Shown in pieces: positions 3,108-14,241 of a stretch of DNA of 39,144 bases. The number at the start of each line of letters is the position of its first letter. Positions within the stretch are counted from its first letter, which is position 1. Origin of the DNA: a virus. Its lineage: Duplodnaviria > Caudoviricetes. The position numbers were made by a program, and so were the translations under genes. The notes beneath the pieces were generated by a model. That model worked only from the letters and a program-made list of their open reading frames with translations, did not search any database and had not been told where the DNA came from. The DNA lies in IMG/VR virus record IMGVR_UViG_3300037424_000319, positions 1 through 39,144 of that record; one strand, written 5' to 3'.

Positions 3108-3143
3108 TGTCGCTATCGTGATAGGTCATGGCTTCACCTCCCC

Positions 3144-3620
3144 TTGGGCTTCTCGGAAGCCTGGCCCTGCCGGGGACTTGTAGCTAGGCCCGGCTTCCAA
3201 AGGCTCGTTGGGCGACGGCGTCATTCGTCAACCCGTCGGACAAGGCCGTCTGCAACACAAACGTCAAGCCAGAACGCCACTGCGCCGCTTTTGGCATCAG
3301 TCCAGTCTGCCTCGACGCGATCCTTGTTCCATACCCCATTGCGCCTCAATCGTCGGGCGCGTTTGGCAATCTTGTCTTCTGGAATGCCAAGCAGCTTGCC
3401 AATTCTTCCGGCATGAGGCCCAACTAAAGCACTTGCGAGGAGCATGGCGGCCGTCTCCGCAGAGGCCTCCTCGCACTTGGGGTCCATCTTATAGACCAAG
3501 TCATAGATTTCTTTGGCCGTCATTTGCTTCTCTGCCATCTCTCTACTCCTCGCCCGACATCTATTCGGGCTGCGTCGTGTGATTCAAGTCCCCGGTAGGG
3601 CCTTGTTGGGCTTCTCGGAA
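3144..3620. mobile_element. Putative non-autonomous single-gene insertion cassette with bipartite inverted ends and 15-bp direct repeats
   Basis: TTGGGCTTCTCGGAA at 3144-3158 and 3606-3620. Inverted 18-mers at 3163-3180 and 3585-3602 (17/18). Inverted 9-mers at 3207-3215 and 3550-3558 (8/9), each 26 bp inside its 18-mer. Confidence 0.65.
3221..3538 (-). CDS. Hypothetical (HTH-like) cargo protein of the cassette
   Basis: 105 aa ORF with GAGGAG RBS, fully enclosed by the inverted ends. Confidence 0.75.
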   Translation of the reverse strand: MAEKQMTAKEIYDLVYKMDPKCEEASAETAAMLLASALVGPHAGRIGKLLGIPEDKIAKRARRLRRNGVWNKDRVEADWTDAKSGAVAFWLDVCVADGLVRRVDE

Positions 3621-3794
3621 TGCCGCAAGGGCCGGCTTCGCGTGCGGATCGTGGCCGCACCATTCGCACTTCAGGCGCGCCCCGCAATTCGTACAGGTCA
3701 TGGCCGCCTTCACGAGAACCTCTATCCGCTTGTCGCGGCGCTGAATGGCCTCGGAGGCGGCGGTGCGCTCGGCCGGCGTGAGGGGTGCGTTCAT
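3561..3794 (-). CDS. Small zinc-ribbon protein; last 14 codons supplied by cassette end
   Basis: CTNC...CEWC; FREAQ codons coincide with the direct repeat. Confidence 0.6.
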   Translation of the reverse strand: MNAPLTPAERTAASEAIQRRDKRIEVLVKAAMTCTNCGARLKCEWCGHDPHAKPALAAFREAQQGPTGDLNHTTQPE

Positions 3795-3803
3795 CGGAAC
3801 CGT

Positions 3804-3835
3804 TGTCTACCGGGGGAGTCGTCCCCCGGTAGACA
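3804..3835. repeat. Perfect 14-bp inverted repeat (hairpin), possible terminator or processing site after the SSB-like gene
   Basis: TGTCTACCGGGGGA-GTCG-TCCCCCGGTAGACA; no U-tract. Confidence 0.7.
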
Positions 3836-4965: not shown

Positions 4966-5329
4966 CGGGGGCCTCCAGTTGAGACGGCTCAAAGCCGCCA
5001 TGCGATATACCGTGGTTCTTGCCACCGCAGGCGCATCGGCAGTCCGGCTGTGTTGCCGTCTCGCAGTTGCGGTTGCAGACAATGGCGTCATCCGTAGACG
5101 CGACCCCAAATCGACCGAAGTAGAGCCGGCCATTCCTGAGGATCATGGGGTATTCGTCGTCCACGGCGCCGTCATTCTTGATGTGGCTACCCAAGCCGTG
5201 ATAGCCGGTGTGCTGTCGCGGGTCGCCATCCAGGGTGAATGCAAACTCTCCCGTGTCGGCGTTGTAGAAGAACCACCGCGTGTTCTGCGTAGTCTCCCAG
5301 GACCAATGGCCGTGCCGCTTGGACTTCAT
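4958..5329 (-). CDS. Hypothetical protein with Cys/His metal-binding C-terminus
   Basis: CNRNCETATQPDCRCACGGKNHG. Confidence 0.65.
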   Translation of the reverse strand: MKSKRHGHWSWETTQNTRWFFYNADTGEFAFTLDGDPRQHTGYHGLGSHIKNDGAVDDEYPMILRNGRLYFGRFGVASTDDAIVCNRNCETATQPDCRCACGGKNHGISHGGFEPSQLEAPDG

Positions 5330-6252
5330 TCTAGCCTCGCAATCCCCTTGTCGATGTCCGCCAGCAGGCGGGCCGTCAGGGTTCGCAGTCGGCGGAGGAC
5401 GGCCTTGCCGCCCTTGGGGTCACGGTCACCCTTGGCAATCATCGACACGATGCTCCGAGCAGCCTCGATGGCGTCCTCGGCCATGAGTACCTGCCGGTCC
5501 TTGATCCACTCGAAGAGGACCCGGCCCGTGGCCTCGCGCACCGTGGGCTTCGGCATCGGCTTACGGGGCGGCAGGTTATCGGCGTACTCAAGGATTCTCG
5601 CCGTCGGCATCGCCAGCGTGCGCGTGACGGCCTTCTGCCCGCCGAAGTCCGAGGCTCGCTTGACGACCTCGGCCATCTTACGGGTGTCGCGGCTGGAAAG
5701 TTCGTCCTTGGCTGCCTTCTGGAGAACTTGGGCGGCAAGTTTGGTGTCGCCGCCAGTTCCCTGGCGGGCCTCGCGGACATTTCGTTCGGTAAGTAAACCC
5801 GGGTTTACTTCGACGACTTTGCGAATGGCCCCCTCTAGCATCTCAAGATACTGAGAGATGCGCATCTTTGTCCATCCGAGCTTCTTCGCGAGTTCCTCCT
5901 GCGTGCAACCCGTCTCATCGATGATGGCCTGGAGCGCCTTGGCGATATCGATGGCAGCCATGTCCTCCCGGACAACGTTCTCGATGAGGCTCTGAGTCAG
6001 CAACTTGTCGTCGGGCACGTCCGCCACCAGCGCCTCGATGTCCTTCTGCCCAGCGGCCTTGGCGGCCATGACGCGGCGGTGGCCGTAGACGAGAACGTAG
6101 CCCGTCCCGTTCGGACGAACCTTGATGGGGACGAGCTGGCCTTGTTCCCGGATGCTGGCTTCCAACTCTTCCAGTTTCTCGGGGGACATCTGCTTTCTGA
6201 CGCGCTTCTCCAGGCCCTTGATCTCGTTCAGTGCGATTGTCTGTAGTTTCAT
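5326..6252 (-). CDS. parB: ParB/RepB/Spo0J-family protein
   Basis: LEASIREQGQLVPIKV...YGHRRVMAA...LIENVVREDM...TQEELAKKLG HTH; start ATG 6252 with GGAGG RBS. Confidence 0.9.
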   Translation of the reverse strand: MKLQTIALNEIKGLEKRVRKQMSPEKLEELEASIREQGQLVPIKVRPNGTGYVLVYGHRRVMAAKAAGQKDIEALVADVPDDKLLTQSLIENVVREDMAAIDIAKALQAIIDETGCTQEELAKKLGWTKMRISQYLEMLEGAIRKVVEVNPGLLTERNVREARQGTGGDTKLAAQVLQKAAKDELSSRDTRKMAEVVKRASDFGGQKAVTRTLAMPTARILEYADNLPPRKPMPKPTVREATGRVLFEWIKDRQVLMAEDAIEAARSIVSMIAKGDRDPKGGKAVLRRLRTLTARLLADIDKGIARLE

Positions 6253-6274
6253 TCGTTCCTCCTGTTTGTGTCTG

Positions 6275-6361
6275 CAATTGTACGACATGCCCCAGACAGG
6301 AAGATTAGAGTATGATGAGAGAATTGCGGCCTGGCGGAGATTTGGCCTTAGAATTGCGGCC
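6275..6361. promoter_or_regulatory. Divergent promoter region with 12-bp direct repeat
   Basis: TACAAT on minus (6277-6282), TATGAT on plus (6311-6316), AGAATTGCGGCC at 6320-6331 and 6350-6361. Confidence 0.4.
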
Positions 6362-6604
6362 ATGCAACCGGCTGAACTTCCTGGACACTCTGGCGTGTAT
6401 GCCCTCTGGCAGGATGGCGAATGCCTGTATGTTGGCGCGTCGCAGAACATCAGGCGGCGGTGGGGTGGCTTGATCAAGTCCCGGAATGACATCCCAAAGA
6501 AGGGCGTCGAGGTACAGGTCTGGCTTTGCCCACCCGATGAGCTCGGACGACTTGAGAAGAGTAAAATAGCGGAGTTGCATCCCACCCTCAACGGTGCCGG
6601 TTAG
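6362..6604 (+). CDS. Minimal GIY-YIG nuclease (alternative start 6287)
   Basis: GVY...LYVGASQNIRRRW...LEKSKIAELHPTLN. Confidence 0.8.
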   Translation: MQPAELPGHSGVYALWQDGECLYVGASQNIRRRWGGLIKSRNDIPKKGVEVQVWLCPPDELGRLEKSKIAELHPTLNGAG

Positions 6605-6794: not shown

Positions 6795-7073
6795 ATGAGA
6801 CAACCCAGAAGGGTGATCTGTAAGGTGGATGAAAGTCTCCGTTCGCGACTCTTCGTGGCCTACAACGCGGCACGGCGCGCGGCAAAGTCTGGCCTGCTGG
6901 ACAAGCGCCGGCTGGACCGCGCGCTCGGGTTGGCTCTGCGGAAGACGTACACCCAAACGTACAAGACGACTCTGCGCGGCTGTTCGTGCCGGGACGCGGA
7001 GATACACCCGGGAGTCTGGTGCAAGCATCGTCTTGCGCTAGCCCTGAGACGAAAGGCGGAGGCCGAAGAGTGA
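6795..7073 (+). CDS. SWIM zinc-finger protein
   Basis: CSCRD...CKHRLAL (CxC...CxH). Confidence 0.75.
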   Translation: MRQPRRVICKVDESLRSRLFVAYNAARRAAKSGLLDKRRLDRALGLALRKTYTQTYKTTLRGCSCRDAEIHPGVWCKHRLALALRRKAEAEE

Positions 7074-7360
7074 CAGTAGCAGCGTGTACCAAATGCGGGA
7101 TCGTCCGAAGGATGCACAGGGACCACATTGTTCCGAGGGCGCTCGGCGGCGGGGAAGAGCTGGAGAACATTCAACTTCTCTGCGCCAACTGCCACGAGGA
7201 CAAGACCGTGGCCGATCTTGCGACTATCTCCAGGCTGCCAGATAGCCGAGCGAGGAAGTCGCGGGCGATGCGCGGTAATCAGAATGCGCTGGGGTATCGC
7301 CATAGCGCAGAGGCAAAGTCTCTAATGTCTCTGTACAGGCGATTGGCGGCTCAAAAATGA
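7070..7360 (+). CDS. HNH endonuclease with NUMOD3-like tail
   Basis: CTKC...DHIVPRALGG...NIQLLCANCHEDKT; GYRHSAEAKSLMS. Confidence 0.85.
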   Translation: MTVAACTKCGIVRRMHRDHIVPRALGGGEELENIQLLCANCHEDKTVADLATISRLPDSRARKSRAMRGNQNALGYRHSAEAKSLMSLYRRLAAQK

Positions 7361-8967: not shown

Positions 8968-9156
8968 ATGAATGACCCCTGGACGACTGACGACTTGGAC
9001 CGACTGCGGGCGGCGTTTGACGCGTTCGACAAGGAGCAGAGACGGTGCGCCCAGCAAGAGTTGTGGTTCATCGTCAAGGGAGTGCTGCTGATCGTGCTGG
9101 TGATTGCCGGGATTGTTGGGTTGTCGCTGCTGTTCGGGTGGGGGGTGGGATGGTGA
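8968..9156 (+). CDS. Small membrane protein
   Basis: C-terminal hydrophobic helix LWFIVKGVLLIVLVIAGIVGLSLLFGW. Confidence 0.55.
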   Translation: MNDPWTTDDLDRLRAAFDAFDKEQRRCAQQELWFIVKGVLLIVLVIAGIVGLSLLFGWGVGW

Positions 9157-9254
9157 AGTTCAGCTGCGTAATATGCGGCTTGGTGTTCAAACGCCTCGAC
9201 TGGCTGCTGGCGCATGTCGGCCAGTGTTCGGCGTGGCTGAGGAGAGCGAATTGA
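9150..9254 (+). CDS. 34-aa classical zinc-finger-like peptide
   Basis: FSCVICGLVFKRLDWLLAHVGQC; overlaps both neighbours. Confidence 0.5.
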   Translation: MVKFSCVICGLVFKRLDWLLAHVGQCSAWLRRAN

Positions 9255-9796
9255 GCGGAGAGCGTAGACCAATTAGCAAGGGAGCACGCTTCGACGTATT
9301 CCGGCGAGACGCATTCACGTGCCAATACTGCGGCCGACGGCCACCGGAGGCGGTGCTAGAGGTAGATCATGTTCTTGCGGTCGTCGAAGGCGGCGGCAAC
9401 GACGAAATGAATCTCGTCACGAGTTGTGCCGACTGCAACCGCGGCAAGGGGCGAAAGCGTCTTGAGGCAATTCCAAGACCGGACGCCGAGGACGCTTGGC
9501 TTGAAATCCAGCAAGAGGTCGCGGAGCTTCGTCGTTATCAGGAGGGCAAAGCCGGAAGGGACGCGATCCGAAAGGCGGTTGTCGATGGCTTAGCCGAGAT
9601 GTGGTGTGAACAGATGGGCCTCGATTGGTACCCGCAGGAGAGAACGCTCGAGGACTGGGTGTCGAAGTTTGGCCCGGAGATGGTTGAACAAGCCATCCGC
9701 GCCGTGGCCCCCAAGGTTGTCTCGGGAAGAGTTGCGGCTAGCACGGCTGCAATCGCCTATACCAGGGGCGTGCTCAACAAGATGGCCGAGCGATGA
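9251..9796 (+). CDS. HNH endonuclease-domain protein
   Basis: RFDVFRRDAFTCQYCG...LEVDHV...NLVTSCADCNRGKG; TTG start after GGAG. Confidence 0.88.
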   Translation: MSGERRPISKGARFDVFRRDAFTCQYCGRRPPEAVLEVDHVLAVVEGGGNDEMNLVTSCADCNRGKGRKRLEAIPRPDAEDAWLEIQQEVAELRRYQEGKAGRDAIRKAVVDGLAEMWCEQMGLDWYPQERTLEDWVSKFGPEMVEQAIRAVAPKVVSGRVAASTAAIAYTRGVLNKMAER

Positions 9797-12751: not shown

Positions 12752-13116
12752 CCCGCCAACTCCGGCAAAAGACTGGCGCAGCCTCGGATGCCTACGAGCG
12801 GCCAAGGAAGAGATGCAAAGGAATCTGCCAGCGATTGGTGTACGACGACATGATGCAGTACGGGATGTGTGCGGAGTGCTTGGCGGTGATGTCGAAAGGG
12901 CACCCGAACGAGGGGCGGAACGAGAAGCGCATGACGATCATCCACGACCCGTCGGGGACGTACCGGGAGGGGCATGCGCAGCTTCCGCTGACTCAGTTCG
13001 AGGCGGGGTTGAGGCTGATGACTCTGGATGCCGGGACGGTGGTGCAGGACTCTGAGGGGAACCTGTTGAGGGTGTGTGAAACGAAAGGGATGAAGCAGTG
13101 GATTGAGCCCGAGTAG
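12748..13116 (+). CDS. Hypothetical protein
   Basis: GTGA overlap; C-terminus KGMKQWIEPE recurs at 13456-13491. Confidence 0.6.
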   Translation: MTRQLRQKTGAASDAYERPRKRCKGICQRLVYDDMMQYGMCAECLAVMSKGHPNEGRNEKRMTIIHDPSGTYREGHAQLPLTQFEAGLRLMTLDAGTVVQDSEGNLLRVCETKGMKQWIEPE

Positions 13117-13136
13117 GGCGAGAGGAGAAAAGGAAA

Positions 13137-13325
13137 ATGGCTACGATAACGCTTCAAATCAAGGCAGTGGTATCCAAAGAGATTCAGTTCGCGACGCTGG
13201 AGGAACTGATCGAGCTTGGTGCAGAATTGGCAAAGGAGTATAGCCCGGCCAGTAAGGGATGGTCATACTGCGATGGATCGGTGGTACTCATCGGCGTCGA
13301 AAACGAGTGGGACACGGAGGCATGA
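13137..13325 (+). CDS. Hypothetical protein (inserted moron)
   Basis: Strong RBS; stop overlaps the repeated cassette end. Confidence 0.65.
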   Translation: MATITLQIKAVVSKEIQFATLEELIELGAELAKEYSPASKGWSYCDGSVVLIGVENEWDTEA

Positions 13326-13379
13326 CGCCGTCGCCCAACGTACCTGCTGAAGCGGACTCTAGCTACAAGTCCCCGGCAG
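13322..13379 (+). repeat. Second copy of cassette end (inverted relative to 3167-3224)
   Basis: 49/58 identity: identical 19-bp and 21-bp blocks flanking a diverged 18-bp middle. Confidence 0.9.
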
Positions 13380-13510
13380 TGTCATAAGGGGAGGGCTCGT
13401 CATCGACCCAGAGCAACCCCCGACGCCTACCGAGACCGCGAAGGCGGAGTAACCAAAGGGGATGAGGCAATGGCTGGAACCGGAAGCGTGACACCGCTGG
13501 AGAGGAGACG

Positions 13511-13906
13511 ATGATGACCAACTATGGCCAAGGCTATTGGACGGCTGAGACGTGGCGCAGGCTTGGGGCGTTCTCCCGACTGGCTGATGCCCGCGGGATT
13601 GCCTACTGGAAGCGTCAAGCGGAGGCCGAGCACGAGCGGGCGGAGAGGCTAGAGTCCATGCTGGAAGTCTATCGTGGTGAGTATGGACGCGGTTACGACC
13701 TCGGGCTGTCGGTTTTCAGGGCCGAGCGCGACGAAGCCCGCCAGGTGGCGATGCAGCTGCTGCGGCTGGCGAAGGCACAAGACGCGCTGTTGCTGGCCCA
13801 AGATGAGCATGGGCCGCATGACTGGCGAGCCACCGAGAGGCTATGTCTGCTTGATGATGCCTGGGTGGCCATGTCGCCCGCGTTGCGCCGGCTGGTGGAG
13901 GAGTGA
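13511..13906 (+). CDS. Coiled-coil hypothetical protein
   Basis: GAGGAG RBS; RAERDEAR coiled-coil pattern. Confidence 0.6.
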   Translation: MMTNYGQGYWTAETWRRLGAFSRLADARGIAYWKRQAEAEHERAERLESMLEVYRGEYGRGYDLGLSVFRAERDEARQVAMQLLRLAKAQDALLLAQDEHGPHDWRATERLCLLDDAWVAMSPALRRLVEE

Positions 13907-14241
13907 AGATTCGACTGTCTCGCGCTGATGCGGAGTTCTCGAGGGCGATCAAAGAGAGGGATGGCTGGCGATGTCGTCGGTGCGGGACTCAGTACGCTGA
14001 AGGCTCACGGGGGTTACATTGTGCCCACATTGTCGGCCGGCGGAACCGAGAGTTGAGGTGGGATGAGAGGAATGCCGTGTCTCTCTGTGCATCGTGTCAC
14101 TTCTGGGCACACGGGAACCCCATAGGCTTCACGTCATGGGTGCGCAGCGAGATAGGGGCGACAGGATACAACTGGCTTAAGCGGATCGGGGCAACACCCA
14201 AGAAGGTTCGAGAGACAGCGTGTAAAGGAGAATCGAAATGA
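13903..14241 (+). CDS. NinG/Rap-like HNH-fold nuclease
   Basis: ADAEFSRAIKERDGWRCRRC...HCAHIVGRRN...RWDERNAVSLCASCH. Confidence 0.78.
   Translation: MKIRLSRADAEFSRAIKERDGWRCRRCGTQYAEGSRGLHCAHIVGRRNRELRWDERNAVSLCASCHFWAHGNPIGFTSWVRSEIGATGYNWLKRIGATPKKVRETACKGESK

Follow-up and report, generated by a model that had tools for sequence, protein, structure and literature searches.

The window, as we call the whole 39,144-nt stretch of viral DNA analyzed here, carries a 447-bp insertion enclosed by inverted ends of about 57 bp. We propose that this insertion probably moves as a non-autonomous unit resembling MITEs and mobile insertion cassettes (MICs), its insertion presumably due to an enzyme acting in trans and the exchange of its cargo to recombination inside the ends. 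The alleles observed comprise empty sites, filled sites and sites with exchanged cargo, and phage gene mosaicism is thereby tied to a defined DNA end that is shared with host chromosomes. Both the cassette and the repeat family to which its ends belong are real and apparently have not been described previously.

Architecture of the cassette

The window is a tailed-phage contig, 53% complete, with terminase, portal and lysin genes. The cassette and its surroundings comprise the following features:

3144-3158, plus strand: first 15-bp copy of the target duplication (reduced to 14 bp should the element extend 4 nt beyond each 18-mer)
3159-3215, plus strand: downstream end, with a 4-nt tip, the 18-mer at 3163-3180, a partly conserved 26-nt spacer and the 9-mer at 3207-3215
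3221-3538, minus strand: cargo gene, 105 aa, of a widespread family without a name and with a predicted winged-helix fold
3539-3549, minus strand: ribosome-binding leader, adjoining the inner 9-mer and common to alternative cargo genes
3550-3606, minus strand: upstream end, with the tip at 3603-3605/3606, the 18-mer at 3585-3602, a 26-nt spacer and the 9-mer at 3550-3558
3606-3620, plus strand: second copy of the target duplication, a perfect direct repeat of 3144-3158
3561-3794, minus strand: upstream phage ORF 3794, the frame of which now continues through the duplication into the upstream end

An initial sequence-only reading had proposed two inverted 53-bp ends around the gene at 3221-3538 and a perfect 15-bp direct repeat outside them; all coordinates of the ends check out and both repeat copies are present. 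The 18-mer arms are 94% complementary, and the 18-mer occurs three times in the window with up to three mismatches, versus 0.13 expected occurrences. The downstream end scores 51 bits with a hidden Markov model (HMM) of the family, for which reversed sequence, as a control, gave at most 9.3 bits. The spacers are both 26 nt long, as had been noted, but they are not unconserved as had been claimed, since they hold fixed positions (a G after the 9-mer, GG..GC and GCT). The interior lacks a transposase and is enclosed by terminal inverted repeats, as in MITEs and MICs, and the description as a transposase-free single-gene cassette is supported.

The cargo protein has 659 relatives at E ≤ 0.001 among representatives at 50% identity and no Pfam or PHROG match. 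Its structure was modeled with a pLDDT of 96 (the single-sequence model was poor), and its best structural neighbors are winged-helix regulators, with IscR at a middling Z-score of 6.9 (r.m.s.d. 3.2, 75 aligned); Foldseek returned no significant match, and the atlas matches were all under 0.9. The model thus predicts a winged-helix protein. As Pfam, PHROG and structure comparisons detected no nuclease or recombinase domain in the cargo, which is moreover replaced by other genes between the same ends, the cargo is unlikely to be the mobilizer.

Other features of the window adjoin no end, namely a ParB-domain protein (5326-6591) and four HNH-domain ORFs (850-1470, 6986-7360, 9104-9796 and 13903-14241). 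A perfect 14-bp inverted repeat with arms resembling the 18-mer core lies at 3804-3835, just upstream of ORF 3794, and a variant of it is present in runs X2 and X3.

A related phage carries the empty site

With the upstream ORF as query, we retrieved a close phage relative, G002, in which the flanks of the cassette are joined directly around a single copy of the 15-mer. The flanks of the window agree with this site almost letter for letter, and the insert amounts to 447 bp plus one repeat copy. An empty allele in a related phage had been named beforehand as one check on the cassette, and an intact one exists in G002.

The comparison also revises one detail. The sequence-only reading held that deleting the element and one repeat would restore ORF 3794 with the tail ...AAFREAQGEMKP*. 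The empty site is real, but this tail is not native to ORF 3794: in G002, the 15-mer falls within the coding tail of another gene, 80 aa long, which ends in these residues and lies behind the ORF 3794 homologue (68% identical). On this comparison, ORF 3794 would own the tail only through a deletion or a module swap in the lineage of the window.

Both junctions lie 3-4 nt beyond the 18-mer, where family conservation fades. Because this conservation reaches about 4 nt beyond the 18-mer (consensus ...GGGCC-ATGA), the ends can be read either as symmetric, with a 14-bp duplication, or as extending 3 and 4 nt, with a 15-bp duplication.

Small early genes of these phages have short gene-tail and leader modules in common, which end in a purine-rich leader followed by ATGA and were noted at window positions 3125-3143 and in three other loci (L143, L193 and L283). 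This second layer signals shuffling as well.

Different genes occupy the same ends

The window holds a second locus with a third copy of the end, which the sequence-only reading had missed:

13113-13121, plus strand: inner-box remnant, which opens the second cargo slot and overlaps the stop of the upstream gene
13137-13325, plus strand: second cargo gene, 62 aa, with an unrelated gene in its place in G002
13331-13383, plus strand: third end copy, behind the second cargo gene, with no partner 18-mer and no direct repeat

The third copy follows the 62-aa gene with the same stop-to-box junction as at the first locus. As far as the inner-box remnant, the window is about 90% similar to G002; each then carries a gene unrelated to that of the other, and the similarity resumes with the 9-mer of the downstream end. 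Directly outside this end, 65 bp of the window (13395-13459) are absent in G002.

Cargo exchange is also observed in short contigs from three runs of one wastewater study (X2, X4 and X5), in which the upstream end and its leader precede at least three other gene starts, reading MMIETLF, MAKTPV and MKDEDR (from 30 letters each). These contigs of 147-326 nt, none of which spans the whole element, match the window from 3540/3544 onward with 0-1 differences; their upstream genes diverge beyond 3632, different upstream genes having a 27-nt gene-tail module in common. With contigs this short and upstream genes that differ, the same slot here means the same end together with the gene-tail module. The expectation that the same ends would surround other cargo is thus borne out both by these gene starts and by the slot at 13113-13383.

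Among phage-like loci, the inner box is directly followed by a leader and a start codon in 9 of 34 cases, and a comparison of L219 with L243 reveals a one-sided gain or loss that begins at the inner box and speaks against transposition as a unit.

The ends belong to a repeat family of one bacterial lineage

The ends are copies of a dispersed repeat of about 57 bp that is present 12-74 times in each of five genomes of one Anaerolineales family. Using a sequence model with up to 150 candidates scored per genome, we counted 74 matches in G001, 28 in G264, 19 in G332, 13 in G338 and 12 in G258. An exact 16-mer was found in 9 of the 81 genomes of the family (control, 0) and exact matches in four of 301 genomes of the order, while in a phylum sample of 401 genomes only G001 proved real, two single matches being at chance level. 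Pattern scans yielded five IMG/VR contigs with seven loci (one of which is a chance match), 85 metagenome stretches with an end (a few likewise) and the Anaerolineales record L056; the latter is, by a rough score, the one clear true match of a loose-pattern scan of genome contigs that covered six of 64 parts and returned mostly chance matches. No match to the end was found among 50,697 GenBank phages, in PLSDB plasmids or, for six loci, in Rfam, and no description of the sequence in the open-access literature.

Judged by the shared repeat alone, this Anaerolineales family (Chloroflexota) likely comprises the hosts of these phages, and the repeat thereby connects uncultured phages to a likely host group. 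Relatives of the other flanking genes of the window and of the phage G004 were found only in contigs already in the set, and a further candidate, L417, was rejected as a chance coding match. In G005, a tyrosine integrase is followed by the apparent 3′ part of a tRNA gene (L384, 1220-2150), a candidate attachment site for which five candidate host genomes gave no match.

Within the family, 110 of the 129 ends measured have a spacer of 25 or 26 nt, and in six of eight measurable locus pairs the spacer has diverged more than the outer flank. Close neighbors (≤600 bp apart) face outward in 47 of 60 cases, and many copies lack an intact partner. The chromosomal copies are intergenic among core genes, for example rpoB, rpoC, dnaK, rpsB and ftsZ, mostly with no gene inside and with no bias in the orientation of the surrounding genes. 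Orthologous slots retain the end pair in genomes that are only 70-80% alike, a pattern more easily reconciled with the retention of a functional site than with an active transposon. Slot interiors vary and often hold hairpin repeats like those flanking DUF559 and four-helix-bundle genes, and extra hairpin DNA is often inserted directly behind the TCCCC of the 18-mer.

Several variants were observed alongside. In G001 and G264, a hairpin of 24 bp, in some cases expanded in tandem, is inserted behind TCCCC and gives rise to a long form of the end (L355-L361 and L351). The two arms of L351 agree in a rare variant across about 110 bp, as if one arm had recently been copied to the other. On a 2.09-Mb contig of G338 (C3), the unpaired top matches, some of which have degenerate partners, are possibly polarized by replichore or transcription: those at 161, 362, 473 and 791 kb lie on the minus strand, those at 1321 and 1731 kb on the plus strand. 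Small genes on one 10.5-kb metagenome contig (L211-L214) are surrounded by 12 or more ends, which do not all point the same way. The same host genomes contain DUF559, four-helix-bundle and short GIY-YIG genes within repeats of their own and without the ends described here (L371, L373, L374, L378, L379, L381, L431 and L439).

Search for a mobilizing enzyme

The sequence-only reading had looked to the same ends around a transposase or recombinase. None was found: Pfam assigned no such function to any of the 242 ORFs adjoining ends (150 of 170 plus 92 of 111 scanned), and none of 114 enzyme or small-nuclease loci had an end nearby. Among phage ORFs, 85 of 137 were scanned, and no mobilizing gene was found. 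The families searched were IntI, DDE_Tnp_1, Y1, DUF559, four-helix bundle, phage integrase, Cas1, IS110, GIY-YIG, rve and resolvase; these searches were run in incomplete assemblies.

DDE_Tnp_1 (PF01609) is encoded in one of the five repeat-rich genomes and the IS110 transposase (PF01548) in none of them and in two of the nine genomes searched, with no end at the loci of either family. The short core used by IS110 and IS1111 elements takes the place of a long duplication. The resemblance to IS1111-type elements raised in the sequence-only reading is therefore unsupported on two counts, the missing IS110 transposase in the repeat-rich genomes and the 14-15-bp repeat. REP/REPIN systems with RAYT, in which palindromic repeats flank a Y1 transposase, were likewise rejected, as none of 11 Y1_Tnp loci has an end and the repeats give no fold signal.

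Mechanism and alternative interpretations

In the mechanism that we consider probable, the unit inserted at its target, as shown by comparison with G002, where it is absent, and by the two copies of the 14-15-mer that surround it here. An enzyme supplied in trans would bind the double-stranded ends, in which conserved blocks lie at roughly helical spacing, cut about 4 nt beyond the 18-mers and join the ends to a staggered target. The ends would from then on act as fixed brackets: unrelated genes or small repeats replace the DNA between the inner 9-mers in the alleles observed, likely by recombination within the ends, with the end providing the ribosome-binding leader. In chromosomes, the same brackets would persist at intergenic slots among core genes. 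We infer mobilization in trans, and no enzyme was identified among the families tested; if such an enzyme exists, it would produce an unusual 14-15-bp duplication, tolerate any cargo and fall outside those families.

A long direct repeat flanks only one of 47 end pairs, that of the window, so that insertion as a unit rests on one event. The other pairs match the null expectation, including four gene-sized phage-like pairs; about four of the 47 are probably false and two are near-duplicates. Most of these pairs are chromosomal and may be old.

The missing repeat at 46 of the 47 pairs is what one would expect if the ends were a host protein-binding or regulatory repeat of REP/BIME or PeSL type that phages acquired, with cargo shuffled by homologous recombination between copies, an alternative that we regard as tenable but doubtful. 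The 15-bp repeat of the window would then reflect a one-off microhomology recombination in the common gene-tail module, and the occurrence of the 27-nt tail module behind different upstream genes agrees with this, as do the copies that keep their position at core-gene slots and the failure to find an enzyme among the families tested. Of 154 outer ends at host loci, 58 have promoter-like boxes pointing outward in the adjoining 90 nt of outside sequence, compared with seven on the reverse strand and 11 in shuffled sequences, which favors a regulatory role but may only mirror places where insertion is tolerated. Against this interpretation, the downstream repeat copy begins exactly at the family tip and leaves out the remainder of the tail module, in agreement with a staggered cut; palindromes and promoter-terminators are both ruled out as descriptions of the repeats; and the strict outward pairing needs a cause.

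We consider it rather unlikely that the inverted end pairs are docking slots, in host chromosomes and phages alike, of a dedicated cassette-exchange system of a new kind. Here the host lineage would have an enzyme of its own, with no relationship to known transposases or integron integrases, that plants the slots with a 14-15-bp duplication and swaps whole reading frames, placing ORFs exactly behind the built-in leader. Were this true, phages would draw single genes from a source comparable to an integron, with no integron involved.

The remaining interpretations fare far worse. In one of them, the 15-mer would be the core of a circle that is excised and integrated site-specifically, with the 18-mers as recombinase arms. 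This had been suggested by the sequence-only reading and by a small palindrome at the would-be circle junction, and G001 does have a tyrosine-recombinase-like gene near one pair, at a distance of about 0.5 kb and beyond an intervening gene. Yet the 15-mer is coding sequence from the tail of the target gene and present at none of the other 46 pairs, the palindrome is off-center, and no tyrosine integrase was found in the window, G002, G003 or the complete G004, which makes this model very improbable. The contigs listed for source run X1 include no skip, empty-site or circle joint at the element; as contigs drop rare forms, absence is not implied.

That an integron integrase uses the ends as single-stranded sites resembling attC is also most unlikely. 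An RYYYAAC-like box just behind the stop codon, a leader and start codon behind a GTTRRRY-like box (PMC5027507) and the presence of IntI in G001 and G264 speak for such sites, and the sequence-only reading had likened the first of these boxes to an attC R″ box. The paired R boxes described for attC (PMC5027507) are missing from the family: among 116 aligned copies, picked by a pattern that fixes both boxes and the 25-26-nt spacer, one R-box pair is broken in all 116 and no compensatory pairs occur. The consensus fold is a 3-bp stem only, with double changes in three of the 116 copies. Neither strand gives a fold signal (mean z of −0.3 to −0.5, 60 rows). The ends are furthermore inverted instead of direct, show no conserved hairpin and no gene-orientation bias, and come with a target duplication; neither IntI locus has an end, and no IntI scores above the cut-off in G258 or G028. 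In the absence of a consensus fold beyond 3 bp, attC, tRNA-mimic and ribozyme readings were rejected, and the ends look like double-stranded binding sites.

A mini-casposon moved by a Cas1-family casposase would account for the 14-15-bp duplication and for a TCCCC motif read at the end, both described for casposase (PMC5137440, PMC6614799), and TCCCC is nearly invariant here; but the motif lies 13 nt inside the tip, the elements measure 0.1-0.6 kb and lack Cas1 and polymerase, and no Cas1 was detected in any of the five (incompletely assembled) repeat-rich genomes, so that we give this reading hardly any credence.

Comparison with known systems

The closest comparators of a MITE- or MIC-like unit are MIC231 of IS231/IS4, the Tn3-type MICs of Xanthomonas (PMC4337579) and prokaryotic MITEs (PMC10969869). 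As described for these, a passenger gene or short interior lies between inverted ends, with no transposase and a target duplication, and there are many gene-less copies in intergenic DNA (PMC4337579, PMC10969869). Here, in contrast, no cognate IS was found for the ends, which consist of two parts around a rapidly changing spacer; the exchange of cargo takes place in situ, at the start codon, and chromosomal slots are kept across diverged genomes. The (T)CAT consensus of the tip recalls the 5′-CAT ends given for IS231 and ISH8, whereas the duplication of 14-15 bp exceeds the 7-13 bp reported for IS4 subgroups (PMC2266710).

Among phage elements, PeSL cassettes of T4-type phages are similar in being short, repeated and placed beside small non-essential genes, and in allowing gene replacement by recombination between copies; PeSL is described as a promoter plus a terminator (PMC2839356), neither of which was found in the ends, and the copies described here also form inverted pairs in bacterial chromosomes. 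The mycobacteriophage elements MPME1 and MPME2, of about 440 bp, likewise have inverted ends and clean empty sites in phage genomes, but are described as constant in sequence with six unrelated base pairs at one end (PMC3029335), whereas the elements described here have variable cargo, a duplicated target and ends that also occur across host chromosomes.
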